Assembly (NCBI GenBank): GCA_964645795.1
Contig: CAZYCL010000008.1
Span: 8,166-72,165 of the forward strand
Length of the DNA stretch: 64,000 bases
Reading direction: 5' to 3'
Source of the DNA: an uncultured Planctomycetales bacterium
GTDB lineage: Bacteria > Omnitrophota > Gorgyraeia > Gygaellales > Profunditerraquicolaceae
Positions 29,696 through 56,712 of the stretch are shown here, piece after piece. The position numbers were made by a program, and so were the translations under genes. A model generated the notes under the pieces. It had not been told where the DNA came from, made no database searches, and saw nothing but the letters and a program-made list of their open reading frames with translations. Within the stretch, counting starts at the first letter, position 1. Every line of letters starts with the position of its first letter.

Positions 29696-29730
29696 TTAGG
29701 TATCGGTTGCGACTGTCGGTTTCGTATATT
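29676..29730. repeat. Left inverted-repeat flank of the four-helix-bundle gene (CGGTNNCGG repeat family)
   Basis: cggtgtcggcttcggttaggtatcggttgcgactgtcggtttcg. Its reverse-complement-like partner lies at 30121-30180. Confidence 0.6.
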
Positions 29731-30118: not shown

Positions 30119-30120
30119 GC

Positions 30121-30180
30121 GAAACCTCCTCCGACAACCGATACGTGTCCGAAACCGCAACCGAACCTATTTCTCTGCGT
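30121..30180. repeat. Right inverted-repeat flank of the four-helix-bundle gene
   Basis: cgacaaccgatacgtgtccgaaaccgcaaccgaacc is approximately the reverse complement of the left flank. Confidence 0.6.
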
Positions 30181-32467: not shown

Positions 32468-32473
32468 GCGCTT

Positions 32474-35752: not shown

Positions 35753-35777
35753 CTACCTGCTCCTTCTACGCTTGATA

Positions 35778-37292: not shown

Positions 37293-37304
37293 AGTATTGC
37301 CCCC

Positions 37305-38069
37305 TTACTGGACAGGAGTGCTCCAGCTCCTGCTTCTTGAGATAACGTTGCCGACGCTTTCGGTATTATATTCGTAACGGTTCTCTTCGTTCAAAAGCAA
37401 GCCCTGACCACCTGTTTCGTAATTCGCGCGCTCTTCATATTGAGGGGCCGGGGTATAGTCATCCTCAGGATGCCTGCCCTCGGAGGTATCAAAACGGGTA
37501 TAAATAGTTGTGGCTAAAGTATCCTGCAGCTGCGAGGAGCGGGCGTTAGCAACTATACCGCCTGCCTCTCTTTTAGAAAACGAGGTGGAGTATGACTCAT
37601 CTCGCACGCTGGTTTCGCGATAGACGTTAACCGGCATCTTGGCTTCCTGCTTGCCGCCCATGGCATCGTAAATAACCTTGTCCTCGCGCGGAAGACCATC
37701 GTCCGGATCTCCTATCATCATCCCGTTTATCTCATAAAAGGCGAACGACTGTTCATCTTTGGCACCCTGCGCTCCGGGCTGACCCATCTGCCACATGACG
37801 CTGGCAGTAGAGCTAAGGCTGGTTGCCTGGCCCTGGCCCCAGCCGCCGGATAAGCTTGCCAGGCGGGTATCTTTTTTTAGGGAGTAGGAGACGCTGCTGT
37901 TTTTTTCGTAGGCCTTTTGCAGGGCCTTGCGGAAAGCTTCCATCTTGAGCTGATTCTGCATCTCAAGCCGCTGGCCGTAAGTGACGAGGGTGGAGAGCAC
38001 CAGGATCATGATCGTGCCGAATACGGCAAGCTCTATCGCTGCCTGGCCTCTATTCCTGCAAATTCTCAT
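37305..38069 (-). CDS. TadE/TadF-like pseudopilin
   Basis: MRICRNRGQAAIELAVFGTIMILVLSTLV carries the canonical TadE-family motif GQAAIE(L/F)A. Confidence 0.6.
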   Translation of the reverse strand: MRICRNRGQAAIELAVFGTIMILVLSTLVTYGQRLEMQNQLKMEAFRKALQKAYEKNSSVSYSLKKDTRLASLSGGWGQGQATSLSSTASVMWQMGQPGAQGAKDEQSFAFYEINGMMIGDPDDGLPREDKVIYDAMGGKQEAKMPVNVYRETSVRDESYSTSFSKREAGGIVANARSSQLQDTLATTIYTRFDTSEGRHPEDDYTPAPQYEERANYETGGQGLLLNEENRYEYNTESVGNVISRSRSWSTPVQ

Positions 38070-38111: not shown

Positions 38112-38609
38112 TTACCAAAAACCCATACCCGACGGGGTTGGTATGTCCAGGCTCCAATCGAAGTCAAATAGCCACCCCAGATCTTCCAGTCCGGATAAGT
38201 CCAGGTCTAGCCCTAAACCGCTTCCTGTGTTGTTCTCGGTAACACCGATCGCGTTCAGCAATGCCTCTGCCCCTTCATCTACGCCGCCTGAAGTGCTGGT
38301 TTGGCTCTCTGAGCTGGAAGCTACGGTGCTTATGACTACCGAGGATTCTGTCCCGGAGTGATTTTCCTGAAGCCGGTAATTGGAGGCCTGCGTGCCGGTA
38401 GCATATACCCTTGAGGTCTCATCGCCCTTATAATCGTGCGGCTCCTGGCCCCAGCCTTCCCATAGAAGATAATTGGCGGTAGCGCCGATCTTCTTCATGT
38501 ATGCGCGCTTAAGCGGGTTGCCAAAAAGAGTAAAGAGGCTGAGTGCCACTCCGAGCGTCACTACCCAGCTTATCAGGCTGTTGGCCTTGTTTGAACTAGC
38601 GATCTTCAT
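38112..38609 (-). CDS. Membrane-anchored Ser/Thr-rich hypothetical protein in the pilin array
   Basis: ORF track. It has one N-terminal TM helix (SLISWVVTLGVALSLFTLF) and no prepilin motif. Confidence 0.5.
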   Translation of the reverse strand: MKIASSNKANSLISWVVTLGVALSLFTLFGNPLKRAYMKKIGATANYLLWEGWGQEPHDYKGDETSRVYATGTQASNYRLQENHSGTESSVVISTVASSSESQTSTSGGVDEGAEALLNAIGVTENNTGSGLGLDLDLSGLEDLGWLFDFDWSLDIPTPSGMGFW

Positions 38610-38914
38610 TGATAGGCCTCCACTCTCTCGCTCCTGGTCGTAGTCATAGAGCTGGAGCCGGTTGTTTGTGTCGCGCCGTCCGGCACGCCGGAGCCGCCTA
38701 CGCGGGTTGTGGAGCTGGAGGAGGTAGTGGTGATGATATTGGAGGTAGTGTGGCCGGGAGAGTACTGCGGGCCGACGTTATCAGCCTGCTCTTTAAGCCC
38801 TCCCTGATAGGCCCTTTTGATATAAAACTGCATCACCAGCAAAGCGCTGATGACCACCGCCACCAGTAGCGCATACTCGGGTATGCTTTGAGCTTTTCGC
38901 GACCAAAACCTCAC
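38606..38914 (-). CDS. Flp/TadE-like prepilin paralog (102 aa) with a Ser/Thr-rich tail
   Basis: MRFWSRKAQSIPEYALLVAVVISALLVMQ followed by ...TTTSSSSTTRVGGSG... Confidence 0.65.
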   Translation of the reverse strand: MRFWSRKAQSIPEYALLVAVVISALLVMQFYIKRAYQGGLKEQADNVGPQYSPGHTTSNIITTTSSSSTTRVGGSGVPDGATQTTGSSSMTTTRSERVEAYQ

Positions 38915-38949
38915 TACCTCCTCCTTGTTAGAGCAGCAAGCTAATATGC

Positions 38950-39366
38950 TTAAAAATCAGCCACGACATCAGTAGGCAAATCACCGGCTTCATAGCCTTC
39001 GGCTGCTGCGCCGTCCATCCTGGCATTGCTGGTCGTAGTGCGGGTGCCTCCTGAGCGCTCCGAATAAGTCAGAGCACCCTCAGGAGCTCCGATGGAAATG
39101 GAGCCGCTAAGCGAGCTGATATTTCCTGAACCTGAAGTAATGGTTTCCTGACCGGACAAAATCCTGCTTACCCTGGTTGTCGTGCCTGTCGCAGAGAAGC
39201 CTTCGCCCATCTGATCAGAAGACTCCTTCAGGTGTCCGGAGTAGCCTCTTTTGATAAAAGTCTGCATAAGTATAAGGGCAGCAATAACCACAGCCATGAG
39301 TATCACATACTCGATTATTGACTGGCCTTTTCTTTTACGAGAAAAAACCATATTCCACCTCCTCAT
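38950..39366 (-). CDS. Flp/TadE-like prepilin paralog (138 aa)
   Basis: MRRWNMVFSRKRKGQSIIEYVILMAVVIAALILMQ. Confidence 0.65.
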   Translation of the reverse strand: MRRWNMVFSRKRKGQSIIEYVILMAVVIAALILMQTFIKRGYSGHLKESSDQMGEGFSATGTTTRVSRILSGQETITSGSGNISSLSGSISIGAPEGALTYSERSGGTRTTTSNARMDGAAAEGYEAGDLPTDVVADF

Positions 39367-39374
39367 TCTGATTT

Positions 39375-39722
39375 CTATTCGACTTCCATGCCGCCGGTTG
39401 CGGTCTCCAAAGAAACGGAGTTGGTTATGGAAGTAGTCACCCCGCCTGCTGTTTCTCCACCGCCCTTCCTCATGGTCTTGGTATAGCTATCCGCGGTCAC
39501 GTTGGTAGCGGAACCCTCTGAACTGAAAAGAGTTACGCTTGCATCGTTAGTCAACGTATCGTTTCCCGCGTCCAACAAATAATTCACCGCCTGCTTGCTT
39601 TTTGTACGCATACCACCCTTAAGCATCATCTGCATGACTCCCGCAGCAACCGCAGCCACCAGGGCGATGACAATCGCGTACTCGGCAACTGATTGCGCTT
39701 TCCTGGATAACCTCATAAACAC
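39375..39722 (-). CDS. Flp/TadE-like prepilin paralog (115 aa)
   Basis: MFMRLSRKAQSVAEYAIVIALVAAVAAGVMQ. Confidence 0.65.
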   Translation of the reverse strand: MFMRLSRKAQSVAEYAIVIALVAAVAAGVMQMMLKGGMRTKSKQAVNYLLDAGNDTLTNDASVTLFSSEGSATNVTADSYTKTMRKGGGETAGGVTTSITNSVSLETATGGMEVE

Positions 39723-39805
39723 CTCCTTAAAAAATAATTCGTATGACGACAGCGCTTCACAAAACCCTATATCTGTGATTGGCTGTTAACCTCCTCACCC
39801 CGATC

Positions 39806-40006
39806 TTATTGAAATACGCCGGTGTTCAGATTGCCCGCAACGTTGGTTACGGCATCGGTCACTGAATCATAGGACGTCTCAAGCTTGTTCTTCATGCCGC
39901 CCTGACCGCCTGCTCCCAATAAAACAACGATTATAGCCATGATGACCACCGCTAAAAGCAGGGTGTACTCCAGGATGCTCTGGCCCTTTCTCTGTTTTTT
40001 CCTCAT
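39806..40006 (-). CDS. Flp/TadE-like prepilin paralog (66 aa)
   Basis: MRKKQRKGQSILEYTLLLAVVIMAIIVVLLG. Confidence 0.65.
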   Translation of the reverse strand: MRKKQRKGQSILEYTLLLAVVIMAIIVVLLGAGGQGGMKNKLETSYDSVTDAVTNVAGNLNTGVFQ

Positions 40007-40060
40007 TCTCTCACCTCCCTTTTTTTAAAAATTTTATACCCTCAACAACTGCTCCATATC

Positions 40061-40465
40061 TTATTGGTAGTGCATTTCTTGCGCGTGCCCGCCACCGCCA
40101 CCACCTCCGCCGCCCGTGCTGCCGCCGGGGTTATGTATGGGGTCGGGATCGTCATATTCGACATAATCCGGCTCGCCCTGGTGCGGATTAGTCTGCACCA
40201 AAGGATTATTGCCTACCCCGGGAGAGAAAGACGTGGCGCTATTACCTCCGGGAGGAGCGGCAAGCGTGTGAGCGTTAGTCTGCCCCACTGCGTCGCTGCG
40301 CCTGTAACTTAACTCCTCTTGTATCAACTTTAACTTGGCGTTTACCGAACGGTAGAGATACCTGTGGGTAAGGGCAATGGCGCCGGCGACAACCATGAAA
40401 AGTATGACGTATTCGATTATGCTCTGCGCTTTACCGCTGGCTCTGGGCATTTTGCCCTCCTGCAA
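40061..40465 (-). CDS. Flp/TadE-like prepilin paralog (134 aa) with a poly-Gly C-terminus
   Basis: MPRASGKAQSIIEYVILFMVVAGAIAL followed by ...GGSTGGGGGGGGGHAQEMHYQ. Confidence 0.65.
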   Translation of the reverse strand: MQEGKMPRASGKAQSIIEYVILFMVVAGAIALTHRYLYRSVNAKLKLIQEELSYRRSDAVGQTNAHTLAAPPGGNSATSFSPGVGNNPLVQTNPHQGEPDYVEYDDPDPIHNPGGSTGGGGGGGGGHAQEMHYQ

Positions 40466-41089: not shown

Positions 41090-43405
41090 ATGGGCGTAAT
41101 TCATAAATTAAAGCCGGAAATCCTGGATTTTATCCTGGAAACAAAGAAATCCCAGCCGCTAATAAGCTGCCGAAGCATGGCTGCGGAGATCGAAAAAAAG
41201 TTCTCTTTAAAGGTATCCAAATCCAGCATCAACGCTGTATTTAAGAGCGCGAGCCTCAGCCTTCCCGTAGGCAGAAGATCTATAAAGCAGAAGCCGCAAG
41301 CAGATAAACCCCCCTTGCTCCTGGAAAAGCTTACAGAAACACCTCAGCCTGTTGAATGCCGTCCGGATATCTTGCCATCTCTGGCTAAGGCCCCTTTTGC
41401 CCGGGAAATAATCGCTTCCGCGCAAAAAGAAGTAGACTCAAGCCTTTTGCCGGGTTACGCGAGCCTGCAGGAAGAAGCTGCTCCTGAGGCAGCGGCGCAG
41501 CCCGAGCCTGTTATTGAGCCTTCGATTCAGCCGGTTGAGTCGCCAGTTCAACCACCGCCAGAGACAACAGCTGTTACGCAGCCTCAAGCGGAAGCGGAAA
41601 AGGCAGAACCTGAAGCTGCAAAGGAGGCCATTGAAGAAACGCCTGAGAATCTTAAAGAGGCCACTCGGTCTCCAGAAAAGACAGAACCGCCTGTTGTAAA
41701 ACAAACCCCTGAAGAACAAACTGCTCAAGAGGCGCTGAAACCGGCCGCAGAAGATCAAACCGCTGAGAAGGCTAAACCAGCTGAGCAGATGCCTGAGGCT
41801 CTAGAGCCTGCGAAAGAGGCAACAACGCCTCCCGCGCCGCAGGCGCAGAAGCCAGCAGCGGCGCAACCCGTATTTGAGCCGGAAAAAGAAGCTACTGAAA
41901 TACAGGCTGCGCAAGAACCTGCTCAGCATGTCAAAAAGCCTTTACCAAAAGAGCCGGTCCCGACCGAAGAAAAACAACCCGCAGAAGTAAGCCTGCAGAA
42001 GCCTGCGCCGCTTCCTGAGCATCCGGTTGCAGAACCGCGAGAGATAAAAATAAAAGAGCCTTTGGAAACCCCTGCGGCCAAGACCGCAGGGACCACTCGC
42101 ACTGGCGCGCAAAAAACCAGAGGGCTGGTCATATTAAAAGCCGCAGACAACCTCCTTGGGGGCTCGCGCAGCCTGGCTGAGCTTTTCCGCAATCGAGTCG
42201 ATATCCAGGATAAGAGATTGAATGCCAAGATCGAGGCTTTGGTCTATGGCTCTCTTTTTCAAGAACTGGCCAGCGACGCCCTGCCTACTGATGAGATAAT
42301 AACCGCGGATGAAGCGGTGGAGGTATTGGACAAGCTACGTTCCTCTCCTAATCTGATACAGGAAAGCCTGAGGCTTCTCTTCAACGGCATCGAGGATGTG
42401 CGCTGTATAAAATTCATCCTCTCCGAAGGAAACCAGTTCTTTATCGACGGGCAGTTTCGCAGCGTCTGGTCTTCGCAGCACACCCCGCACAGCTTCTCAA
42501 ACGCCCTGGCAAACACCAAGCTTACTCTCAATAAGTACCTGTATGAGAACAACCCGCTCATTATCTTCTGCGCCCCAGGCAGGGACGTGCCTGCGCAAGA
42601 GCTCTTTGACATGATCGCAAGCCTTAACTACTCTGCCAAACCCATAAAGAAGATCGGGCTATGCGGACACAGGGATAACGACTTGGAGGTCCTGGCATTC
42701 GACCAGAGCTGCAGGCATTACTTTATCTTCGGGATGTTCCCCTGGCAGTATGTAAAGTTCCGCCGGGTAAAGAAGCTCGGAGAGTTTAAAACGGTAACTC
42801 TGGGGTATCCTAAGGGAGAGTGCCTGCTTGCCAAGGCCCAGGTGGAGTTGATCGAACCCTCCCTGCAGCAGTCGGTAGTCCTTAACGGCTGCGCGTTCAA
42901 GACGGACCCCTCAGCCAAGATAAAAGTGGTGATGTTAAGCAATATGCCGGAGGAGATGTTCACTCTGGAGGAGATGGCGGACGCTTACTTTAACCGCTGG
43001 ATAAACACCGAAGAAGGATTCCAGGATTTCAGCAGGAAGCTTGAGCTATTTACTTATACCGCGGGCTGCGAATATCACTTTAGCGCAGACAATCTGAATT
43101 TAAACCCCGGCTCGCCTTACACCGAATTTAAATCCCTGTTTACCAATTATGCCAGGGCAGCCGACCTTTACGCGCGCTGGAGCTTTTTCCCGCAAGGGTA
43201 TGAAAAACTGGATTTCCTGGAAGTTAAAAGGCGCATCTACAGTTTGGACGTGGAAGTAAAAAGGGAGCAAAGATACGCGGAGTATATGTTTGAAAGGCCT
43301 GCCGAGGCAAGCTACGCCAAAGACCTCGAGTATATCTGCCGCAGGTTAAATGAAAGAGAGATCGTTTCCGCCGACGGAAGGCGCCTGTGGTTCTCTATTA
43401 AATAA
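41090..43405 (+). CDS. Hypothetical 771-aa protein with three parts: N-terminal HTH-like domain, about 250-aa Pro/Glu/Ala/Lys-rich low-complexity linker, and a C-terminal ~400-aa domain of unknown function. Possible regulator.
   Basis: ORF track. N-terminus is KLKPEILDFILETKKSQPLISCRSMAAEIEKKFSLKVSKSSINAVFK. The linker is full of PEPxxE/KPAAE repeats. Divergently transcribed from the pilin array. Confidence 0.6.
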   Translation: MGVIHKLKPEILDFILETKKSQPLISCRSMAAEIEKKFSLKVSKSSINAVFKSASLSLPVGRRSIKQKPQADKPPLLLEKLTETPQPVECRPDILPSLAKAPFAREIIASAQKEVDSSLLPGYASLQEEAAPEAAAQPEPVIEPSIQPVESPVQPPPETTAVTQPQAEAEKAEPEAAKEAIEETPENLKEATRSPEKTEPPVVKQTPEEQTAQEALKPAAEDQTAEKAKPAEQMPEALEPAKEATTPPAPQAQKPAAAQPVFEPEKEATEIQAAQEPAQHVKKPLPKEPVPTEEKQPAEVSLQKPAPLPEHPVAEPREIKIKEPLETPAAKTAGTTRTGAQKTRGLVILKAADNLLGGSRSLAELFRNRVDIQDKRLNAKIEALVYGSLFQELASDALPTDEIITADEAVEVLDKLRSSPNLIQESLRLLFNGIEDVRCIKFILSEGNQFFIDGQFRSVWSSQHTPHSFSNALANTKLTLNKYLYENNPLIIFCAPGRDVPAQELFDMIASLNYSAKPIKKIGLCGHRDNDLEVLAFDQSCRHYFIFGMFPWQYVKFRRVKKLGEFKTVTLGYPKGECLLAKAQVELIEPSLQQSVVLNGCAFKTDPSAKIKVVMLSNMPEEMFTLEEMADAYFNRWINTEEGFQDFSRKLELFTYTAGCEYHFSADNLNLNPGSPYTEFKSLFTNYARAADLYARWSFFPQGYEKLDFLEVKRRIYSLDVEVKREQRYAEYMFERPAEASYAKDLEYICRRLNEREIVSADGRRLWFSIK

Positions 43406-43414
43406 CATCCCCGG

Positions 43415-43756
43415 TCATTGCAGCGCAAGCACATCCCCCAAAACTATCCCGTTTCTTGCGATGCTGCCAACAGGCAGCTCAACCGCGAAATAGGCCCTGT
43501 AAAAAATAGCGCTAAGCTGCCATGGCTTAAGCTGCGGGCACAACCCCACTACCCTGCCTTTCCTGTCGGAAAAAACCACATCTATGGGGAAACGCATGAA
43601 AAAGGTGTGCACCGAGTTGCATGGCCTGATAACCAAACATTGCCCGTCTGCAAGACCATCCCTGCCCAATAAACCCTTGAGCCTTTTCAAAAGGCTTCCG
43701 GCAACCTCGGCTTCTTCAGAGATAATATTGTTTTTGCTCAGATTTATTAATTTCAT
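43415..43756 (-). CDS. DUF192 (COG1430) family protein
   Basis: ...LKGLLGRDGLADGQCLVIRPCNSVHTFFMRFPIDVVFSDRKGRVVGL...AVELPVGS fits the DUF192 conserved pattern. Confidence 0.6.
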   Translation of the reverse strand: MKLINLSKNNIISEEAEVAGSLLKRLKGLLGRDGLADGQCLVIRPCNSVHTFFMRFPIDVVFSDRKGRVVGLCPQLKPWQLSAIFYRAYFAVELPVGSIARNGIVLGDVLALQ

Positions 43757-43789
43757 AATTTAATATGTAGCGAACAAGGGCCGCGGTTA

Positions 43790-43890: not shown

Positions 43891-43901
43891 ATTCCGGGGT
43901 A

Positions 43902-46046
43902 TTACTTCTTCTTAAACAACTCATCCGGGAGCGGTATGCCACGCAACCTGATATCTTCGGCAAAGGTGGGGATATAACCGGTAGGCAGGTAGTTACCGAG
44001 GACTTTTTTGTTCTCGTCAAGTCCCGTCTGCTTGAAAGCGAATACGTCATGCAGCCCGATATGGGTCTCATCGAGCATCCCGGCTATCTCGGTTATCTGC
44101 ATTACCCGGCGGCTGCCGTCGGAAAGGCGGGCGGTATGCACGATGATATCGACCGCGGCGGCGATCATCTCGCGGATAGAGCGCAAAGGCAGCTCTATTC
44201 CCGACATCAGTATCATGGAATCAAGGCGCGCCAGCACATCGTGGGTGGAGTTGGCATGAATTGTGGTCATGGAGCCGTCATGGCCGGTGTTCATGGCCTG
44301 GAGCATATCAAGGCTTTCTACGCCGCGGCACTCGCCGATGATTATCCTGTCCGGACGCATCCTTAAGGTGTTCCTGAAAAGATCCTTGATGGTAATGGAA
44401 CCCTTTCCTTCGATGTTCGGAGGACGCGACTCAAGCCTTATCCAGTGCACCTGATTAAGCTTTAACTCCGCGGCATCTTCGATAGTGATAATACGGTCGT
44501 CTTCCGGTATGAAGTTAGAGAGGACGTTAAGCACGGTGGTCTTGCCTGAACCGGTGCCGCCGGAGACGATGATGTTCTTGCGCGAGACCACGCAGGCGCG
44601 CAGGAAATCGACCATCGCCTGGCTCAATGACTTAAGCTCCACCAGCTCCTCTGCCTTGAAACTTTCCTTGCGGAATTTTCGTATCGTTACCGCCGGCCCT
44701 GTAAGGGACAGCGGCGGTATTATGGCGTTGACGCGGCTGCCGTCGTTAAGACGGGCGTCCACCATCGGCATGGACTCATCAATCCTTCTGCCGATAGGGG
44801 CGATGATCCTTTCGATAATGCGTTTTACCTGTTCATTAGAGACGAACTTTTTATTGGTCAATATAATCTTTCCATCGCGCTCGATGTAGACTTCGTCCTT
44901 ATTGTTGACCATGATATCGCTTATGCCCTGATCGGCGAGAAGGTCTTCCAGGGGCCCGAGCCCCAGGGCCTCATCCAGTATCTCCTTGATGATGGTCTTT
45001 CTTTCGTCGGCGCTGGAGAACAGGCCTCCTGCCTCCTCGGCCAGGATGTTGGTGACCACGATCTGCGCCCTTTCGCGCAATTCCCTGGCCTTCTCGACAT
45101 CGCTAAAGGCGTTGGAGTCCAGCCTTTTAATGTTTAGTTCATCGATCAGGCGGTTATGGACTTTACGTTTGAGTGAGGTAAGGGCATCTACTTCCTCAAC
45201 CGCCGCTCCCTTTGCCATCCGGCCCAGGCCCTGCTTTCGCCAGAAATCCCCTGCCTTGCCGGCTCCGGCAGAAGAACCCCTCTCTATCTGCTGGTGGTCG
45301 GCAAAAATGGTCTTGTCGTCGATAAGCAAGGCGGCGAGCTTGCTGATGGTCTGGGTTATCTTGGAGCGCGGGGCATCTGCCAGCACCGGGATACCGCGGT
45401 TTACCGCCTGGCCTACGATGCGGCCCTCGGAAGGTATCTGGACGAGTATGTCTATGGGCAGGGTCGCCTTGATCTCCTGCCAGCTTATGCTGGATACCGA
45501 TTCGGCGCGGTTTAAGATTATGCGCATCATCTTCAAGGGAAAATTCAGGGACTGCAGGGTATCCAGGACCCAGCGGGTCTGATAGACCGAAAGGACGTCG
45601 GGGGTGATCACCAGCAAAATAAGGTGCGCTTGATCGAGGATGCTGATGAGGGTGTCGCTGAAGCTCTGTCCTGCGTCTATGACGATATAATCATACTTCT
45701 CATCGAGGCTGGTGAAAAGATTGGTAACGGCAAGCTGGTCTATCTGGCAGGACTGCTGCGGGACCATGGTTGCACTTATGAAATCTAACCCAAGCTTGGT
45801 CTTGGTCAGGATCACTTCGTTTCTTAAGGTATCGACGTTGGCCGTAGCCAGGGTCTGCAGGTCTGCCAGGGACTTCTGAACGTTGATGTTAAGCATGCGC
45901 GACAAATCCCGGGGGGCCTGGAGGTCAAAATCGATAAGGCAGACGCGCTGCTGGTGGTGCGCGGCGAGGGCGGTGGCGAGGTTAGCGGCTATAAGGGTCT
46001 TACCCGCTCCTCCTTTTGCGCCAAAGAGAACGACAATCTTTGCCAT
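43902..46046 (-). CDS. Fused TadZ/CpaE-like (MinD/ParA-family) N-terminal domain plus TadA/CpaF secretion ATPase C-terminal domain
   Basis: N-terminus VVLFGAKGGAGKTLIAANLATAL carries the ParA/MinD deviant Walker A. C-terminal half has GGTGSGKTT (Walker A), IIIGECRG, and His/Asp boxes typical of CpaF/VirB11-type ATPases. 714 aa. Confidence 0.75.
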   Translation of the reverse strand: MAKIVVLFGAKGGAGKTLIAANLATALAAHHQQRVCLIDFDLQAPRDLSRMLNINVQKSLADLQTLATANVDTLRNEVILTKTKLGLDFISATMVPQQSCQIDQLAVTNLFTSLDEKYDYIVIDAGQSFSDTLISILDQAHLILLVITPDVLSVYQTRWVLDTLQSLNFPLKMMRIILNRAESVSSISWQEIKATLPIDILVQIPSEGRIVGQAVNRGIPVLADAPRSKITQTISKLAALLIDDKTIFADHQQIERGSSAGAGKAGDFWRKQGLGRMAKGAAVEEVDALTSLKRKVHNRLIDELNIKRLDSNAFSDVEKARELRERAQIVVTNILAEEAGGLFSSADERKTIIKEILDEALGLGPLEDLLADQGISDIMVNNKDEVYIERDGKIILTNKKFVSNEQVKRIIERIIAPIGRRIDESMPMVDARLNDGSRVNAIIPPLSLTGPAVTIRKFRKESFKAEELVELKSLSQAMVDFLRACVVSRKNIIVSGGTGSGKTTVLNVLSNFIPEDDRIITIEDAAELKLNQVHWIRLESRPPNIEGKGSITIKDLFRNTLRMRPDRIIIGECRGVESLDMLQAMNTGHDGSMTTIHANSTHDVLARLDSMILMSGIELPLRSIREMIAAAVDIIVHTARLSDGSRRVMQITEIAGMLDETHIGLHDVFAFKQTGLDENKKVLGNYLPTGYIPTFAEDIRLRGIPLPDELFKKK

Positions 46047-46047
46047 A

Positions 46048-47649
46048 TTAATCGAGTTGGTATGATACGGGCACTATTACCCAGAGCTCATCCTTCTGGA
46101 TAGAGGGCGGCAGCGGCGGGTAAGAGGATATTTCTTTGGCTGCCCGGAGAGCGTTGTCATCGAGCATCCTGTAGCCGGAAGTCTGGTCAACCTTGGCATC
46201 CAGCAACTCGCCTCTAAAAGAAAGGTGCAGGTTAAGCTTTACCGTGCCCTGGAAACCAGCTTTCTTGGCAGAGGCCGGATAGGCTATTCTCTCGATGATG
46301 CGCTTCTGGATAAGGGAGGCGTACTTCTCTTCCGGGGTCAGCGGCTCTTTGGGCTCGACGACGGAAACGACTTTTTCAGAAAGGATCTTGGTTGCGGATT
46401 TTGCCTGTTTTATGATCTTTGGCGTAAGCAGTATGAAAAGCTCGGTATCGCCCCTTTCTCCGGTGCCGCCGCCTTCCTTGGTTTCTTTTTTACGGAAGAG
46501 CGCTCCGATAACAGGCACATCGCCCAAAAACGGCACCTTGCGCAAGTCTTCCCCGGTCTTTTCCTTCATCAGCCCGCCGATGGCCATGGCCTGGCCGTCT
46601 TCAAGATAAAGCTCGGTAGAGGCGTTTCTTTTGCTTAAAGGATAGGCCTTGGCAGTAGGGGCGTTAGCCGCGCCTATTGTTTCAGCCTCGCCGACCTCGC
46701 TTACTTCTATGTTAAGAGCAAGCTTTATACGCTCTTCCTCGGTGACCGTAGGTTTGATCTTGAGTTTTATGCCGAACTCCTTATACTCGACCTCGGTACC
46801 CTCGCCTCCGGTTACCGCGACCGCAGTAGTAAATATAGGCTTCTCCCCTCCGACGATAAGTTCGGCTTCCTTGCCGCTCTGGCAGGCCAGCCTTGGACGC
46901 GAAAGAACCTTTGCTTTGCCTTCCTGAATAAGAGCGTCTATCTTAAAAGCAAAAGGCACAACAGTGCCGCCTGTGCCGCGGTATAAGTCCACGACCCTGA
47001 AAAGACTGCTCCAATTAGTGCCTCTTGCCGCCATGAGCGCCGGGTTAAGCGTAGCCCCTGTCTCGGTAATATCAACCGAACCGGGGAAGGTAAATCCGAG
47101 GGTTTTGGTAGCATCTTTATTAAGCTCGAGTATCTGGACATCGATCTCAACCGCCGCCTCTTCTTCCTTGACCTTGATAAGGTCGACGATCTTGCTCCTT
47201 AGTTCACCCAAAACGACATTTATCCGCTCCCTGTCCTGGGCGGTCTTTACCGAACCCATGAGAAAGACCTTTTCTTCGTCCTCTTCCGGCTGGGTATAGA
47301 CGTCGGGAAGGCTCAATTTGGATAAAAGCTTATCTACGCGCTTCTTGATGATATCCACGTCCTCGGAAAATACTTTTATCAGGTAAGACTGCTCTCCATA
47401 GTCATCCCAGATGACCATAGTGGTCGAGCCTCTTGTCTTGGGGGTGAGGGTCAGTTCTTTCTTGGTGGCCTTGCTTATATCGACTACGGAAGGATTTCCC
47501 AGGACCACGCGGGTGGGGTTGCTCATCGACAGCCGGCGCGTTTCACCCAGATACAGCTTAAGCACCTCTTCGGCCAGCGCGATGTTGTTAAGGCACAAAA
47601 AGCCGAGGAGCGTAAAAAACGGGACAAAAAACCTCATTAGTTTAATCAT
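46048..47649 (-). CDS. CpaC/RcpA-type secretin with a C-terminal TonB_C-like domain
   Basis: Signal peptide. The secretin core is ...VPFLGDVPVIGALFRKKE...ELFILLTPKII. The C-terminal ~90 aa are ...IAYPASAKKAGFQGTVKLNLHLSFRGELLDAKVDQTSGYRMLDDNALRAAKEISSYPPLP, a TonB C-terminal-type fold signature. Confidence 0.7.
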   Translation of the reverse strand: MIKLMRFFVPFFTLLGFLCLNNIALAEEVLKLYLGETRRLSMSNPTRVVLGNPSVVDISKATKKELTLTPKTRGSTTMVIWDDYGEQSYLIKVFSEDVDIIKKRVDKLLSKLSLPDVYTQPEEDEEKVFLMGSVKTAQDRERINVVLGELRSKIVDLIKVKEEEAAVEIDVQILELNKDATKTLGFTFPGSVDITETGATLNPALMAARGTNWSSLFRVVDLYRGTGGTVVPFAFKIDALIQEGKAKVLSRPRLACQSGKEAELIVGGEKPIFTTAVAVTGGEGTEVEYKEFGIKLKIKPTVTEEERIKLALNIEVSEVGEAETIGAANAPTAKAYPLSKRNASTELYLEDGQAMAIGGLMKEKTGEDLRKVPFLGDVPVIGALFRKKETKEGGGTGERGDTELFILLTPKIIKQAKSATKILSEKVVSVVEPKEPLTPEEKYASLIQKRIIERIAYPASAKKAGFQGTVKLNLHLSFRGELLDAKVDQTSGYRMLDDNALRAAKEISSYPPLPPSIQKDELWVIVPVSYQLD

Positions 47650-47653
47650 TCTC

Positions 47654-48565
47654 TTAATAATCCCTTAATGGGACCTTTTCCCGGCCGCTTGAGCCGCGGT
47701 AAATCTCCAGATAACCGCTAGGGGTCTCTTCGTCGTCTTCTTCTTCTTTCTTCTCTTCGAATGCCTGAGGCATAAGCGCTCTCAATATCGTCTCCCAGCT
47801 GACCGGCTGCAGAGGCTGAAGCTGGGAGTCGGCAGGGGAGCGCATAATGAACTTGATCTTAGCCTGCTCCTGGACAAAGGAAATAAGGTTTGCCTCCGGA
47901 GGGGTAAGGGCTACGGTTATGATCGATGAGGCAGCAGCGTCTTTCTTCTCCTGCTGCTTGGGATCCTGCGCTGAAGGCGGCGCGGGAGGAGCGGTGTCCC
48001 TGCCCACTGCCACCACCAAAACATTCTGAAGCAGGGGAACAGAGGTCAACTGGGATGTCGGTTTGCCGTCCGGAGCGGTCGCAGGCAGAGGGATCATCGC
48101 TATCACGTCAACGTAATTACCGGGGATGATCAGCCCCGCCAAAGAAGAGATATCGTCGACTTTTATGGTGACCGCTCTTTTTCCTACGGGAGTAGCCATG
48201 GCCAAAGACATGCCCTGGGCCTCGCGCTTGCTGGAAAGCCTGTCCAGGGTTATCTGCTGGCCCTTGGGTATCAGGGCGACTGCCGTCATGTCGATTATTC
48301 TTTCGGGAGAGGTCACTGCCTGCGGCTGGACAAACTGGCTAGGCACTGGCATGGCCTCGATCATCGAGGCGTCAACGACTGAGCCGGGCGAGATGTCTTT
48401 CTTTGCCACCATCACCGCCACTTGGCTGGTCTGCATCTTCTTGATCTGCTTATTGGCCTGTTCTACGATGAACTGCCTCTGCTGCTGGATATAGGCATAG
48501 ACGGCGAATACCGCCAGGAATGCTATGGCCACACCCAGGATAAGCACCAGCTGCTGTCTTTGCAT
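47654..48565 (-). CDS. cpaB: CpaB-type Flp pilus assembly protein (SAF domain)
   Basis: N-terminal TM followed by ...VAVMVAKKDISPGSVVDASMIEAMPVP. The C-terminus is rich in Ala/Pro/Glu. Confidence 0.6.
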   Translation of the reverse strand: MQRQQLVLILGVAIAFLAVFAVYAYIQQQRQFIVEQANKQIKKMQTSQVAVMVAKKDISPGSVVDASMIEAMPVPSQFVQPQAVTSPERIIDMTAVALIPKGQQITLDRLSSKREAQGMSLAMATPVGKRAVTIKVDDISSLAGLIIPGNYVDVIAMIPLPATAPDGKPTSQLTSVPLLQNVLVVAVGRDTAPPAPPSAQDPKQQEKKDAAASSIITVALTPPEANLISFVQEQAKIKFIMRSPADSQLQPLQPVSWETILRALMPQAFEEKKEEEDDEETPSGYLEIYRGSSGREKVPLRDY

Positions 48566-49515
48566 TATTTGACTTCGCTTTCGTAAACTTCGATCTTGGC
48601 GTCGCGGGAGAGGTTGCCGATTATCTCCTCGACCTTCTGCTGCTGCTTTAGGAAAGTAAGCCCCTTCTTTATGTCGTCCCAGAGCTCTTTAAGGGTCTTG
48701 GCTTCTCCGCCGCGCTTGGCTTCCAATTTCAGGACATAGTAGCCGTCGGGGCCTTTGAATATATTGCTGATCTTACCTACATCGAGCGTCCCGGAAAAGG
48801 CAACGCTGTCAAACTTCGCAAACTTGGCTCCCGGGCTGATAAAACCGAGGTCTCCGCCGTCCTTGGCGCTGGGGGCAATGGACCTGTCTCTGGCTACCGC
48901 AGAAAAATCAGCGCCCTGCATCAGCTGGATGACGATATCCTTGGCGTCCGATTCATTGCGGACCACGATCTCGCGGACCTGCCTTTCTTCCGGCTCCCTC
49001 AACTCTTCTTTATAGGTATTGTAATACTCCTCGATGTCCTTGGAGCTGACATCCACCTGGGCGGTCTCCTGGCGCACCAGGTCAACCACCATAAGGTCCT
49101 GTTTGGTCTTCTCCAGGGCCCTCAGGATATCTTCCTGCCGGTCAAGGCCGCGGTCAAGCGCCGCCTGATATAGAAGGAGCTGGCGCACCTTCTGGTTCTT
49201 TAAATAATCGAGCTTCTGCTCGCGTGTCGTTATCTTGGCTTCGGGCCTGTCCGCGGGGACCATGGAGTTGAAAGTCTCTATCTCCTGGTTCAGGTCTTCC
49301 AGGCTTATCGGCATATTGTTGACCCTGGCGACTATCGGGCCCTTTACCGGCAGCGACGGGTACTCGCCCTTCGAGGAGACCTGGAGGGCGCCCTTGGAAG
49401 ACGTTTTCTTGCCGCCTAAATTTATGAGATTATCACAACCTGATATTAAAAACGCTGCGACTAAAATAAGTGCCGCGCCTAAAGTCGTGCTTTTCATCTG
49501 GTGCTCTCCTTTCAA
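48565..49515 (-). CDS. SurA/PrsA-like parvulin-type peptidyl-prolyl isomerase lipoprotein
   Basis: Lipobox LISGC. The PpiC domain is ...GADFSAVARDRSIAPSAKDGGDLGFISPGAKFAKFDSVAFSGTLDVGKISNIFKGPDGYYVLKLE. Confidence 0.65.
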   Translation of the reverse strand: MKGEHQMKSTTLGAALILVAAFLISGCDNLINLGGKKTSSKGALQVSSKGEYPSLPVKGPIVARVNNMPISLEDLNQEIETFNSMVPADRPEAKITTREQKLDYLKNQKVRQLLLYQAALDRGLDRQEDILRALEKTKQDLMVVDLVRQETAQVDVSSKDIEEYYNTYKEELREPEERQVREIVVRNESDAKDIVIQLMQGADFSAVARDRSIAPSAKDGGDLGFISPGAKFAKFDSVAFSGTLDVGKISNIFKGPDGYYVLKLEAKRGGEAKTLKELWDDIKKGLTFLKQQQKVEEIIGNLSRDAKIEVYESEVK

Positions 49516-53029: not shown

Positions 53030-54247
53030 ATGATAGATATTGGCATAGGTATCAGCGAAGACGCTGACGCTGTGGCGGCGGCAAAAGAGGCGGCTAAAAC
53101 CGCCCTGCGCGCCTTTGCCCCTGCGGCAAAGATCGGCCTGGGCCTGGTCTTCTCGACCAAAAACCTTCCCGGGACACTCCTCTTAAAAACTATCCACAAT
53201 TATATCGAGGGCGTGCCGATACTAGGCTGCAGCGGCTCAGCGCTCATCTCTAACCACGGCATATTGAGGCAGGCGGTAGGGGTGCTGCTTCTGGGCTTTC
53301 CCAAGGGGGTGTACTTCAATACCGCGGCGGTCAAGGGGATAAAAGAGCTGGTCCCCGTCAAAGCCGGCGAACTCCTGGGAGACAAGCTCCTTTACGGCTG
53401 CCGCAACGTGCGCAGGGATTTCGGCATCATGTTCTCGGATGTCTCGGGCAACGAGCAGGCGGGGTTATTGAGCGGGCTTCAGGATAAGCTGGGCAGAAGC
53501 TTCCCTTTTGTCGGTGGATTTGTCGGTACCCCCGCTGACCCGCTGAAATCCCATATTTATTACAACCAGGAGCTACTGGCCGACTCCGCATCAGGCATCC
53601 TTGTCGGTGGAGGAAAGCTTTACTTTGGCTCGCGCATCCGCCACGGCTGGAAGCCCCTGGGTAAACCGCGGACCGTGACCTTCTCGCAAGGCAACGTCGT
53701 CTATGAGATAGACGGCGCGCCTGCGGCCAAGCTTTACGAGAACTATCTTGCCAAGGACATCGCCGAGCTTAAAAAGATCATCAACCGGATATCCGCGCTT
53801 TATCCGGTGGGCATCCATCTTGAAAACGAAAACAGCTATCTCTTGAGAAAAGTCGTCTCGATAGTAGAGAGCGGCGCCCTATTGTTCCAGGGGGAAGTGC
53901 CCCAGGGCAGCCAGATCAGGCTCATGATCGGCACCAGGGATTCGTGTCTTGAGGCGGTGCGCGAAGCGGCAGAGGAGGCAAAAAAAGAACTGTCAAATCA
54001 GGCCGCCGGCACAAAGAAAACTGACACAAGCAGATTTATACTCGTACTTGACTCCATATTCCGGCATATGCTCTTAAGCCGGCAGGCCCGCCAAGAGATC
54101 GAGATCATCCAGGCGGTATTCGGCAAGGATACTCCCATCATCGGCATATCCACCTCCAGCGAAGTAGCTTCTTTACAAACTCAAGGCTATCATGGTAAAG
54201 TATACTTCCATAACCAGTGCATTAACATAATGGCGGTTGAGGGCTAG
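53030..54247 (+). CDS. FIST-domain sensor protein (FIST_N + FIST_C)
   Basis: 405 aa. ...ILGCSGSALISNHGI...GFVGTPADPL...IYYNQELLADSASGILVGG..., typical of FIST signal-transduction sensor domains. Immediately upstream of a histidine kinase. Confidence 0.55.
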   Translation: MIDIGIGISEDADAVAAAKEAAKTALRAFAPAAKIGLGLVFSTKNLPGTLLLKTIHNYIEGVPILGCSGSALISNHGILRQAVGVLLLGFPKGVYFNTAAVKGIKELVPVKAGELLGDKLLYGCRNVRRDFGIMFSDVSGNEQAGLLSGLQDKLGRSFPFVGGFVGTPADPLKSHIYYNQELLADSASGILVGGGKLYFGSRIRHGWKPLGKPRTVTFSQGNVVYEIDGAPAAKLYENYLAKDIAELKKIINRISALYPVGIHLENENSYLLRKVVSIVESGALLFQGEVPQGSQIRLMIGTRDSCLEAVREAAEEAKKELSNQAAGTKKTDTSRFILVLDSIFRHMLLSRQARQEIEIIQAVFGKDTPIIGISTSSEVASLQTQGYHGKVYFHNQCINIMAVEG

Positions 54248-54255
54248 AAACGCAT

Positions 54256-55764
54256 ATGTGGGAGACATTCATAGCTTACGCCGGGGCGGCTGCGATAGCG
54301 GTGATCACGATACTGGTGATAGTCCTGGGCTTGAACATGTCCAAGAGCCAGGAGCTGCAAAAAACGCTAAAGGATATGAAAAGATCTCTGGATGAGATGG
54401 ATGAACAGGCCAAGCTCATCGTGCGCACGGATATGGAGCTCAACAAAACCCAGGAAGAGTTGGACAGGAAGATGTTCGGCCTTTACGGCCTGCAGGGACT
54501 TACCAAGGCCATAAGCAGCACGCTCGAAGAAAGCCAGATATTCAAGATGATAAAGCCCTCGTATCTGGAGGACCTGGGCTTTGAGAAAAGCTGCGCGTTC
54601 CTTTGGGATGAAGAAACTAAAGAATTCAATTGCGCCGTCGGGATAGGTTACGCCCCGGAGGAAACGGAAGGCATTAAGACCTATATCAGAGACCGCCGGG
54701 AGTTCTTCCTGGGCATGATGAAAGAAGAACGCACCTTCTCCTCGCTGTCCCTTCTCTCCGATACGAAAACACGCGATGAATTAAACCAGGTCTTCCGGGT
54801 AAAGTTCTTCGTGCTCTCTTCCATATTGCCCAAGGAGGGCAGCAGGGGTTTTATCTTCGTCGGGACCACTAATCCCGACACGGTCATCACCGAAGGAGAC
54901 GAAGAGCTGGTGACGATCCTGGCCAACAACCTCGGCCAGACTCTGGAGAATGCGCGGCTCTTTGAGAAGACCTGGAGGGCGCATCAGGACCTGGAAAGAA
55001 AGGTCGATGAGCGCACCCGCCAGCTAAGCCACGCGTTGGAAGAAGTCAAAAAGATCAGCCAGCGCAAGACCGACTTCATCTCCGCGGTATCGCACGAACT
55101 GCGCACGCCGCTTACCTCGGTAAAAGGGTATGCGGCAATCTTGCTGGCGGAGAAGCTCGGGCCGCTTCCCGAGCCGGCCAAAGAGAGGCTGGCTAAGATA
55201 AACCTGCACAGCGATGAGCTTGTGCATATGGTCAACGACCTTCTGGATATCGCCAGGATCGAGGCCGGCAAGACCGTAATGAAGCTGGAGGCCGAGAACA
55301 TCCGCAAGGTCATCGAAAGCGCATCCGACCTTATATCAATACAGTGCAAGAACAAGAATATCGACCTTGTGCTGGAGGTGCCGCATGAGCTGCCCTTGAT
55401 CATGCTCGACCACAGCCAACTGGAGCGCGTTTTCATAAATCTGCTTGGCAATGCCGTGAAGTTCACGCCCCAGAACGGGAAGATCTCCATCCGCGCCGCG
55501 GTAAACGGGCCGTCGATCCAGGTGGACATCGCGGATACGGGCATAGGCATGCCGAAAGAAGCGCAGGCCAAACTGTTCCAGGAGTTCTACCGAGTGGATA
55601 ACGAGATCAACGCCCAGGTCAAAGGCACGGGGTTGGGATTAGCCATGGTAAAACATATTATCGAGGCGCACCAGGGAAAGATCTGGGTAGACAGCGAGCC
55701 CGGAAAAGGGAGCACTTTCAGCTTCACCCTGCCGCTTAAATTCAATCAAGATATAAAGACATAA
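54256..55764 (+). CDS. Sensor histidine kinase (TM, coiled coil/GAF-like, HisKA, HATPase_c)
   Basis: H-box ISAVSHELRTPLTSVKGY; N/G boxes LLGNAVKFT...GTGLGLAMVKHIIEAHQGKIWVDSEPGKGSTFSFTLP. Confidence 0.85.
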   Translation: MWETFIAYAGAAAIAVITILVIVLGLNMSKSQELQKTLKDMKRSLDEMDEQAKLIVRTDMELNKTQEELDRKMFGLYGLQGLTKAISSTLEESQIFKMIKPSYLEDLGFEKSCAFLWDEETKEFNCAVGIGYAPEETEGIKTYIRDRREFFLGMMKEERTFSSLSLLSDTKTRDELNQVFRVKFFVLSSILPKEGSRGFIFVGTTNPDTVITEGDEELVTILANNLGQTLENARLFEKTWRAHQDLERKVDERTRQLSHALEEVKKISQRKTDFISAVSHELRTPLTSVKGYAAILLAEKLGPLPEPAKERLAKINLHSDELVHMVNDLLDIARIEAGKTVMKLEAENIRKVIESASDLISIQCKNKNIDLVLEVPHELPLIMLDHSQLERVFINLLGNAVKFTPQNGKISIRAAVNGPSIQVDIADTGIGMPKEAQAKLFQEFYRVDNEINAQVKGTGLGLAMVKHIIEAHQGKIWVDSEPGKGSTFSFTLPLKFNQDIKT

Positions 55765-55776
55765 GGGGCGCGGACA

Positions 55777-56712
55777 ATGCCTAAACCACGCATACTGATA
55801 GCCGACGACGACCCGGATATCCTCGATGTCCTGGAGATAACCTTAACGGAAGAGGATTACGAGATCGTCAAGGCCCACGACGGAGAAGAAGCGCTTAACA
55901 TCATACGCTCAAAGCCCCTTAACCTGGTGTTGGTCGATTATAATATGCCGAAGATGAACGGTAGGCAGGTCTGCAGCGAGGTAAAAAAAGACCTGCTGCT
56001 TTCTCATCTGCCGGTGATCATGGTCACCGGAAAAGGCGAGCTGGACGATAAGCTCAGCGGCATCAACGCCGGAGCGGACGATTATATAGTCAAGCCTTTC
56101 GAGCCCAAGGAGCTCTTGGCAAGGGTAAAGATGTGCCTGCGCCGCACGCAGCGCGACCTTGAAGCCAACCCCCTGACGAGGCTGCCCGGGAATGTGGCGA
56201 TACTGGAGGAGCTATCCCGGTGCCTGGAATCAAAAAAGCCTTTCGCGGTCTGCTACGCGGACCTTGATAAGTTCAAGTCTTACAATGATACCTACGGCTT
56301 TGAGCACGGGGACAATGTGATCCGGGAGACGGCGCGAATAATGCTGCGCTCAATCCAGGAAACAAAAAGGGCGGGGGATTTTGTCGGCCACATCGGGGGC
56401 GACGATTTCGTCATCGTCACCGTTCCCGAGGCCGCGGACAAGATCTGCCAGAAGATAATCGAGGAGTTCGAGAAGGTAGCGCCTACCTTTTATAACGAAA
56501 CCGACCGCAAAAACGGCTATATTATCGGCAAGGACCGCCAGGGAAACATCCAGAAGATACCGCTTCTTTCCATATCCATAGGCGTAGTCACCAACGAGAC
56601 AAGAAAGATCGACCACGTCGCCCAAATCGGCGAGATCGGCGCGGAGTTAAAGCACTACGCCAAAAGCCTGGAGAGAAGCAACTACATCAAAGACAAGCGT
56701 AAAGAAGTTTAG
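55777..56712 (+). CDS. Response regulator with REC domain plus GGDEF-type domain carrying a degenerate GGDDF site
   Basis: REC: ILIADDDPDILDVLE...LVLVDYNMPKMNG. GGDEF domain: LTRLPGN...DLDKFKSYNDTYGFEHGDNVI...HIGGDDFVIV. Confidence 0.8.
   Translation: MPKPRILIADDDPDILDVLEITLTEEDYEIVKAHDGEEALNIIRSKPLNLVLVDYNMPKMNGRQVCSEVKKDLLLSHLPVIMVTGKGELDDKLSGINAGADDYIVKPFEPKELLARVKMCLRRTQRDLEANPLTRLPGNVAILEELSRCLESKKPFAVCYADLDKFKSYNDTYGFEHGDNVIRETARIMLRSIQETKRAGDFVGHIGGDDFVIVTVPEAADKICQKIIEEFEKVAPTFYNETDRKNGYIIGKDRQGNIQKIPLLSISIGVVTNETRKIDHVAQIGEIGAELKHYAKSLERSNYIKDKRKEV

Follow-up and report, generated by a model that had tools for sequence, protein, structure and literature searches.

Type II and type III secretion systems, type IV pili and the export of filamentous phages all use secretins as gates in the outer membrane, and the targeting of these proteins, their assembly and their attachment within the envelope differ from system to system. 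For Tad/Flp-type (type IVc) pili, three reports describe contacts between the secretin and its partners. The secretin RcpA of Pseudomonas has a disordered S-domain, to whose last four residues the tetratricopeptide repeat (TPR) lipoprotein TadD docks; TadD is required for assembly (PMC10499894). The secretin CpaC of Caulobacter is surrounded by a belt of the OmpA-like lipoprotein CpaD, which links it to peptidoglycan and is essential (PMC13170226). At the other end of the secretin, its N-domain is the docking site of the C-terminal hairpin of CpaB/RcpC (PMC12307814). In the present study, we analyzed a stretch of 64,000 nucleotides of contig CAZYCL010000008.1, hereafter called the window, which carries at 46048..47649 the gene for the outer-membrane RcpA/CpaC secretin of a complete Tad/Flp-type pilus-like machine of Candidatus Omnitrophota. 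At the position of the S-domain of RcpA, this secretin has a disordered spacer followed by a folded TonB/TolA-type module, hereafter called the tail. We regard this identity and domain architecture as practically certain, whereas the role of the tail can be proposed with much less confidence.

A Tad complex has been noted in Omnitrophota before (PMC10066038), and a secretion locus located upstream of its giant genes was reported to contain gspD/E/F-like genes, rcpC, a Rotamase_2 isomerase gene and genes with class III signal peptides (bioRxiv 10.1101/2023.11.21.568195). TonB is mentioned in neither of the two, and the literature that we searched yielded no paper that treats secretin, TonB and Omnitrophica together. 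Although automatic annotation shows the architecture, we are not aware of a published description or interpretation of it.

Results

Domain structure of the secretin

A single open reading frame (ORF) on the minus strand extends from its ATG to its stop codon over exactly 46048..47649. The product of 533 amino acids (aa) includes the peptide YPASAKKAGFQGTVKLNLHLSFRGELLDAKVDQTSGYRMLDDNALRAAKEISSYPPLP, in which an earlier note on this DNA had recognized the signature of a TonB C-terminal domain. The gene and its parts are as follows:

46048..47649, minus strand: Tad/Flp-type (RcpA/CpaC) secretin with TonB-type tail, 533 aa plus stop codon (ORF, Pfam and NCBIfam domains, 1217 homologues)
47572..47649, minus strand: signal peptide, aa 1-26, with an inferred cleavage site between ...NNIALA and EEV; no lipobox, not a lipoprotein (sequence)
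47374..47571, minus strand: pil_N beta-sandwich N-domain, aa 27-92 (PF13629, E=1.4e-11; predicted local distance difference test score, pLDDT, >90)
47119..47358, minus strand: ring-building alpha/beta domain, aa 98-177 (confident AlphaFold2 fold; weak BON-like match with E=0.02, below the cutoff)
46408..46935, minus strand: Secretin beta-barrel domain, aa 239-414 (PF00263, E=1.8e-41, 142 bits, full profile coverage)
46336..46407, minus strand: disordered E/K/P/A-rich spacer of 24 aa, aa 415-438 (...EPKEPLTPEE), at the position of the RcpA S-domain (pLDDT, identity and composition)
46051..46335, minus strand: TonB/TolA-type C-terminal module, aa 439-533, composed of a leading helix and the TonB_C core (aa 455-532 = 46054..46287) (PF03544, TIGR01352, AlphaFold2 and Foldseek)

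The assignment of the tail is based on sequence profiles and on its predicted fold. The Pfam profile TonB_C (PF03544) aligned to aa 455-532 from profile position 3 to 79 of 79, with E=1.7e-15 and 57.7 bits against a gathering cutoff of 24.6. The NCBIfam model tonB_Cterm (TIGR01352) covered aa 456-532 with 48.2 bits (cutoff 27.1), and TonB_2 of Pfam gave a weaker match to aa 442-524 (E=1.7e-5). In a search of the PDB by sequence, the tail yielded marginal matches with E-values of about 0.002-0.005, so that the combined evidence from profiles and structure was needed. AlphaFold2 modelled aa 425-533 from 54 homologues with a pLDDT of 89.1 and a predicted template modelling score (pTM) of 0.78, in the topology alpha-alpha-beta-beta-alpha-beta with a short second helix. 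When this model was compared to the PDB with Foldseek, all 25 top matches were C-terminal domains of TonB, HasB, FusB or TolA. The best match, to the C-terminal domain of Neisseria TonB, had a root mean square deviation (rmsd) of 1.4-1.5 Å, a target TM score of 0.78-0.80 and an identity of 28-29%. The earlier note had thus been right to see a TonB_C domain at the C-terminus of a CpaC/RcpA-like pilus secretin, and its estimate of about 90 aa for this domain agrees well with the folded module of aa 439-533. It had also named two findings that would speak against its reading, namely a missing TonB_C match or a standard secretin S-domain in this place; the former is contradicted by the significant match, and the S-domain is ruled out by the Pfam and NCBIfam matches together with the TonB/TolA-type fold.

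The body of the protein is that of a Tad-type secretin. Pfam detected the T2SS-T3SS_pil_N domain (PF13629) and no STN or Secretin_N domain, and several NCBIfam secretin models matched in part. A PDB search with the full-length sequence retrieved RcpA (8odn, E=2.3e-27) as well as GspD and PilQ, and none of the matches extended past residue 448. Likewise, secretins made up the 40 best structural matches of the full-length AlphaFold2 model, and TonB/TolA domains, matching the tail, came after them. Members of the superfamily form gated outer-membrane channels of 12-15 subunits; in our model of a single chain, confidence is low in the gate and lip region (aa 180-244), as is usual for monomer models. 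By analogy to the described systems, the pil_N domain is the expected docking site for the C-terminal hairpin of CpaB. In accordance with the absence of a lipobox from the window secretin, a lipobox-like motif occurred in just 2 of 86 family members. Barrel, N-domain and Tad operon partners therefore all agree with a Tad-type secretin, whereas the S-domain/pilotin feature is replaced; its lack is a variant feature and does not define the superfamily.

Conservation of tail and spacer

Among close relatives, the mean identity to the window secretin was 72% for the barrel, 58% for the tail and 51% for pil_N, compared to 14% for the linker between barrel and tail. This pattern indicates that the tail is under selection. 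Across 146 diverse representatives, beta1 and beta3 were the best-conserved elements of the tail, and the YP, SSG, Asp and FP motifs were kept. The TonB box pairs with beta3 in solved complexes of TonB with its receptors, such as 2gsk and 2grx, which were both among our Foldseek matches.

Within the spacer of the window secretin, pLDDT was below 50 at aa 417-434 of the full-length model. The linker measured 22-53 aa in close relatives and 16-358 aa across the family. In 302 family members, it was enriched in Glu (1.8-fold) and Pro (1.7-fold) and also in Lys, Ala and Gln, whereas hydrophobic and aromatic residues were depleted, and a few members had long helical stretches rich in Glu, Lys and Arg. 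TonB and TolA themselves span the periplasm with spacers of similar composition. Spacer and domain together look like the whole periplasmic part of a TonB/TolA-type protein that was placed on the C-terminus of a pore, with the barrel replacing the inner-membrane anchor.

Ten of the 150 cluster representatives inspected (see below) carried a tandem pair of TonB_C domains after the secretin (P0157, P0174, P0177, P0186, P0192, P0196, P0202, P0216, P0241 and P0252). Individual members showed further peculiarities: P0241 (1091 aa) has an extra tail of 312 aa with a weak TPR match, P0126 a spacer of 355 aa, and P0252 a Glu/Lys/Arg-rich spacer of 187 aa that is probably helical.

Distribution in Omnitrophota

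Among 5.8 billion proteins, 1217 homologues were found, and domains were checked in the 120 that were listed. PF13629, PF00263 and PF03544 were present in all 120, at identities of 51-62% to the window secretin; the named ones among them are called 'TonB family protein' or 'pilus assembly protein CpaC' and belong to Candidatus Omnitrophota. With so many homologues and the same three domains in every one listed, both chance and an assembly artefact are excluded as explanations of the fusion. In a scan of one genome per GTDB species, 299 loci encoded a relative of the window secretin. The best 80 of these were all from Omnitrophota metagenome-assembled genomes (MAGs), and their alignments reached residue 531-533. 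The same operon was found in several MAGs labelled 'uncultured Planctomycetales', and all named close family members are Omnitrophota. Isolated cluster members that carry the label Hydrothermarchaeota, Portnoybacteria or Deltaproteobacteria probably result from wrong binning or labelling.

To delimit the family, 1.84 billion cluster representatives (50% identity) were searched with HMMER, which gave 366 matches at E<=1e-30, of which the best 150 were inspected. Secretin and TonB_C occurred together in 145 of them. The five others are short (302-418 aa), and three of the five end inside the Secretin domain. With a profile built from the most divergent members, every match of at least 509 bits had the tail, while ordinary CpaC proteins, which consist of pil_N, with or without BON, and Secretin, scored at most 279 bits. 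The only match within this gap was P0307 (620 aa, 402 bits), in which pil_N and Secretin are followed by a tail of about 214 aa without a match to TonB_C or any other Pfam family; this protein is possibly a variant form with another kind of C-terminal module. Members with 28-33% identity retain the core of Rotamase, CpaB, secretin-TonB_C and CpaE-CpaF genes; of the four such loci that were examined, two have DUF192 next.

A second secretin class with a homologous tail

A weaker match of the profile was a GspD-type secretin (N0/STN, two Secretin_N domains and Secretin) that ends in TonB_2 and is encoded in a locus resembling those of type II secretion systems or type IV pili. Tailed secretins of this GspD/PilQ type (P0321, P0393-P0511; locus L086, 6001-7866) form a family of 600-670 aa, whose named members are all Omnitrophota and appear in databases as 'energy transducer TonB', 'TonB family protein' or 'secretin N-terminal domain-containing protein'. 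A family-specific hidden Markov model detected the tail in 118 of 120 GspD/PilQ-type secretins, the two exceptions being annotated partial fragments. In all seven members without a stored TonB_C annotation, TonB_C and/or TonB_2 could be recognized at the C-terminus, although always below the curated cutoffs (best 23.6 versus 24.6 bits). Alignment of the two tail families with hhalign gave a probability of 97.7% and E=2e-12 at 21% identity over 90 columns. Both secretin types can be encoded on the same contig, and the one GspD-type locus examined contained no gene for a peptidyl-prolyl isomerase (PPIase) or CpaB.

Judged from these sequences, the TonB-type tail is a general trait of Omnitrophota secretins, which would be either old or have been gained more than once. 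Its presence in two unrelated secretin classes suggests some lineage-specific way of holding secretins in the envelope.

The Tad/Flp-type locus

The secretin gene lies within a closely spaced operon, and the genes for CpaB/RcpC, TadZ/CpaE, TadA/CpaF, TadB/C and Flp-type pilins are all on one strand, from 31580 to 48565. The locus and its surroundings comprise the following features:

48565..49515, minus strand: PrsA/SurA-like parvulin PPIase lipoprotein, head of the operon (Rotamase_2, Rotamase and Rotamase_3 matches)
47654..48565, minus strand: CpaB/RcpC alignment-complex protein, directly upstream of the secretin in the same operon (TIGR03177, E=1.5e-41; PF16976)
43902..46046, minus strand: CpaE/TadZ-like ParA/MinD ATPase fused to a CpaF/TadA secretion ATPase, 714 aa (ParA, CbiA and AAA_31 at aa 3-240; T2SSE at aa 361-640; TadA TIGR03819, E=8e-99)
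43415..43756, minus strand: DUF192 protein, last conserved gene of the core operon (PF02643, E=2e-17)
41090..43405, plus strand: 771-aa protein inside the Tad locus with a weak N-terminal helix-turn-helix (HTH) match, a long stretch of low complexity rich in Pro, Glu and Ala, and a C-terminal half that is conserved but has no known domain (Pfam)
38112..40465, minus strand: five tandem Flp-like pilin/pseudopilin paralogues with class III signal peptides (G/AQS..EY motif) (sequence)
37305..38069, minus strand: TadE-like gene
35778..37292, minus strand: pseudopilin-like protein of 504 aa, very rich in Cys, Asp and Glu
34421..35752, minus strand: TadG-like protein
31580..33334, minus strand: TadB and TadC platform proteins, two T2SSF-domain genes (PF00482, E=9e-20 and 1.7e-16)
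53030..56712, plus strand: FIST-domain protein, histidine kinase and response regulator with GGDEF, divergently adjacent (Pfam)
29696..30160, minus strand: 154-aa ORF, situated between the 2294-aa ORF and the Tad locus (match to the '23S rRNA-intervening sequence protein' family, E=2.3e-17)
22411..29295, minus strand: 2294-aa ORF just upstream of the giant frame (no Pfam match in the parts scanned)
1..20742, minus strand: stop-free frame that continues beyond the window start, at least 6914 aa (no Pfam match in the parts scanned)

The ORF of the CpaE-CpaF fusion begins 1 nt past the stop codon of the secretin. Within the TadE/TadG-like gene group (34421..38069), PF13400 (Tad) matched with E=1.1e-6 and TadE weakly, and N-terminal pilin-like motifs could be recognized. 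The five Flp-like pilins measure 102-165 aa and are thus far longer than classical Flp pilins. The two long ORFs follow the Tad-like locus downstream and share its strand, an arrangement that matches the giant-gene secretion locus described in the preprint cited above. The adjacent FIST/kinase/GGDEF module suggests that the machine is controlled by cyclic-di-GMP.

The conservation of this neighbourhood was counted in two ways, with tblastn in 80 loci and through an unbiased clustering of the complete set of ORFs from 86 loci, with flanks of about 10 kb. CpaB was found in 78/80 and 84/86 loci, the PPIase in 73/80 and 78/86, and the CpaE-CpaF fusion in 76-78 of about 80. Less regular companions were DUF192 (63-66 loci), the divergent 771-aa HTH protein (58-60 loci), pilins (52 loci, forming a paralogous family of 187 members) and the FIST, histidine kinase and GGDEF module (33-40 loci). 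A lipobox was present in at least 59 of 81 PPIases, 48 of these 59 having Asp or Glu at position +2. In E. coli, such a residue after the lipidated Cys would entail retention in the inner membrane. The motif yvEiYRG..vpl of the C-terminal hairpin of CpaB is conserved in the Omnitrophota loci, and the link between CpaB and the secretin is therefore probably canonical. DUF192 was considered as a counterpart of the bridge protein CpaI and set aside: the protein encoded in the window has no signal peptide, 60 of 63 relatives have no N-terminal hydrophobic segment, and the Caulobacter report cited above is silent on DUF192.

Helper genes and envelope type

Pfam searches with every ORF of the window between 31 and 52 kb revealed no TPR-lipoprotein (TadD-like) or OmpA-like (CpaD-like) gene, and no such family was present among the clustered ORFs of the 86 related loci. 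According to general annotations, the window and the annotated related loci also contain no gene for ExbB, ExbD, TolQ, TolR or a TonB-dependent receptor. In one relative, the locus is adjoined by a LolC/E-like gene (MacB_PCD+FtsX). A full secretin barrel with signal peptide, lipoproteins, this LolC/E-like neighbour and two secretin classes point to a normal envelope with two membranes. The suggestion of the earlier note that the fusion might reflect a monoderm-like or reduced envelope is therefore not supported.

Discussion

We propose that the tail is a built-in, flexibly tethered module by which the secretin docks to or is anchored at a generic partner in the envelope. This is the explanation that we favor, although only tentatively, as we give it slightly less than an even chance of being correct. 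From a channel of 13-14 subunits, as many tethered TonB_C domains would hang into the periplasm like a skirt, and these domains might capture an exposed beta-strand of the partner along their conserved beta3 edge, as TonB and TolA do, or bind to the cell wall. Capture would fix the pore to a generic component of the envelope, either a peptidoglycan-associated protein or peptidoglycan itself, and the tail might thereby position, stabilize and perhaps help to assemble the pore. It would take over the job that separate helpers or other domains perform elsewhere, such as TadD, the OmpA-like CpaD belt, TsaP or AMIN domains. The earlier note had already considered a tether to peptidoglycan or an inner-membrane partner, and an anchor would indeed fit a spacer that is disordered, a beta3 strand that is conserved and loci that lack helper genes of the TadD or CpaD type. 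A generic rather than a Tad-specific partner is the more probable one, since the tail is shared by two machines and the one GspD-type locus examined has neither PPIase nor CpaB. Several points weigh against our proposal. We know of no well-established general capacity of TonB-type domains to bind peptidoglycan beyond one report in vitro. The full-length AlphaFold2 monomer (pTM 0.42) does not fix the orientation of the tail. Helper genes could sit elsewhere in the genome, beyond the flanks of about 10 kb that were covered, or the PPIase lipoprotein that is specific to this type of locus could itself be the helper. It is also not evident why a simple anchor should need tandem domains or linkers that reach 358 aa.

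The tail might instead serve the Tad-like machine specifically, by recruiting or holding the CpaB ring, the PPIase lipoprotein, a pilin or the giant protein at the pore. PPIase and tail are both clade-specific additions to the Tad operon and occur together in 73-78 of about 80 loci, including those of divergent members; the locus lies upstream of giant genes, as published; and the binding of specific partner strands by TonB_C domains is established by PDB structures of TonB with the TonB box and of TolA with TolB. However, homologous tails on nearly all of the unrelated GspD/PilQ-type secretins argue against a purely machine-specific partner, as does the one such locus examined, which has neither a PPIase nor a CpaB gene. 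Furthermore, CpaB keeps its own hairpin, which in canonical systems contacts the N-domain of the secretin and not its C-terminus. As the two tail families are only 21% identical, their partners could still differ, and we consider docking within the machine rather unlikely. Alternatively, the function of the tail may be confined to self-piloting, so that it replaces S-domain and pilotin in solubility, outer-membrane targeting and multimerization and has no role once the pore is assembled. This would agree with its location at exactly the position of the S-domain that binds TadD in RcpA, with the lack of a pilotin-like gene in the loci and with a secretin that is not lipidated. On the other hand, the long, variable and disordered tether and the tandem domains fit reaching and capturing in the mature machine better than a transient chaperone, and pilotins make use of a lipid anchor and the Lol pathway, which goes beyond what a TonB_C domain offers. 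A role in assembly only thus appears quite unlikely to us.

Since the hallmarks of TonB, namely the YP motif and the conserved beta3 strand, are kept, the tail might also transmit force or signals like an inverted TonB. It would then engage an outer-membrane transporter with a TonB box or a stator of the ExbBD/TolQR type, either to couple gating, pilus dynamics or the export of giant proteins to the proton-motive force, or to cluster importers at the site of predation. Spacers that resemble the periplasm-spanning ones of TonB and TolA and can be very long would suit such a task, as would the unusual export demands of a lineage that is described as predatory or parasitic. Nevertheless, the N-terminus is a signal peptide and not the membrane anchor of TonB, and stator or receptor genes were seen neither in the window nor in the annotated loci. 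We regard this explanation as decidedly improbable. In a broader version, which we likewise consider improbable, an inverted TonB/TolA would be present on both types of pores throughout the phylum and capture a TonB-box-like strand on a partner in the inner membrane or the wall, possibly a stator of the ExbBD/TolQR type or a TolB/Pal-like module; it would allow assembly without a pilotin and provide a mechanical or energized link between pore and inner membrane during attachment to prey and perhaps the export of giant proteins. Finally, the fusion could be a product of mis-assembly or a frameshift, a neutral relic or a sign of a monoderm-like envelope. The window does stem from a MAG of an ultra-small, poorly known lineage, and the NCBI name 'TonB family protein' reads as if the TonB part were the gene. 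However, the same single ORF recurs in more than 1000 independent sequences and in 299 species-level genomes, and the tail is strongly conserved and sometimes duplicated, so that the artefact and relic readings are effectively refuted; a full barrel, lipoproteins, the LolC/E-like neighbour and two secretin classes are those of a diderm. The chance that any of these three explanations holds is very remote.

A phylum of ultra-small, probably predatory or parasitic bacteria thus appears to fuse a periplasmic TonB/TolA-like part to the pore in two unrelated classes of secretins. If the tail is indeed an anchor or a device for self-assembly, it represents a new and simple design principle, and it would provide a handle for finding the envelope partner in uncultured organisms. 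The pore is probably central to the lifestyle of these bacteria because its locus adjoins giant genes that are implicated in predation by Omnitrophota. In a more practical respect, the names 'TonB family protein' and 'energy transducer TonB' can mislead metabolic reconstructions, in which TonB-dependent uptake would be inferred while the secretin is missed.

Comparison with known systems

The closest relatives of the window secretin are RcpA of P. aeruginosa (8odn) and CpaC of Caulobacter, with which it shares the pil_N domain, the ring-building domain and the barrel as well as the partners CpaB/RcpC, CpaE/TadZ, CpaF/TadA, TadB/C and Flp-like pilins. In contrast to RcpA with its short random-coil S-domain, it ends in a spacer and a folded TonB-type module of 95 aa. 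The locus also differs from those of RcpA and CpaC by the lack of a TadD or CpaD gene and by the addition of the PPIase lipoprotein and DUF192, and CpaE and CpaF, which are separate proteins in canonical Tad systems, are fused. To our knowledge, canonical Tad loci do not contain a PPIase.

With TonB, HasB and FusB, the tail shares the fold of the C-terminal domain (rmsd of 1.4-2.4 Å to TonB from Neisseria, Helicobacter and E. coli), the YP, SSG and FP motifs and a preceding low-complexity spacer rich in Glu, Lys and Pro. Unlike TonB, the protein has no N-terminal anchor for coupling to ExbB/ExbD, its domain hangs from an outer-membrane barrel and is thus inverted in topology, and genes for ExbBD or TonB-dependent receptors were not found nearby. 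The name 'TonB family protein' is misleading: fold and spacer are present, but the inner-membrane anchor is missing and no ExbBD context was found. Similarly, the tail has a fold related to that of domain III of TolA (Foldseek matches 3qdr, 1lr0 and 6s3w, and the TonB_2 match), and the long Glu/Lys/Arg/Ala-rich helical spacers of some relatives are reminiscent of TolA domain II, whereas a membrane anchor and tolQRB-pal neighbours are missing and the Tad-type tail is closer to TonB_C than to TonB_2. The disordered N-terminus of TolB adds a strand to TolA domain III (PDB 6s3w), and by analogy the tail might plausibly contact a generic envelope partner in this way. The tailed secretin is not an energy transducer in the sense of TonB and should not be filed under TonB or TolA, but it may work like their C-terminal domains.

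In its proposed job of fixing the secretin ring to the wall or to a periplasmic scaffold, the tail resembles the AMIN domains of PilQ, the ring of the LysM protein TsaP and the OmpA-like CpaD belt, and it would share with TsaP and CpaD the arrangement as a ring around or below the barrel. AMIN domains and TsaP are known for such anchoring roles (PDB 6ve2). The fold of the tail differs from all of these; moreover, AMIN domains are located N-terminally, TsaP and CpaD are separate polypeptides, and wall binding of the tail is putative. A precedent for the reuse of TonB_C-like domains as periplasmic connectors in an envelope-spanning machine is given by the gliding proteins GltG and GltJ of Myxococcus (PMC9946355). 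GltG and GltJ are anchored in the inner membrane and coupled to a motor, whereas in the secretins of Omnitrophota the outer-membrane pore itself is the anchor.

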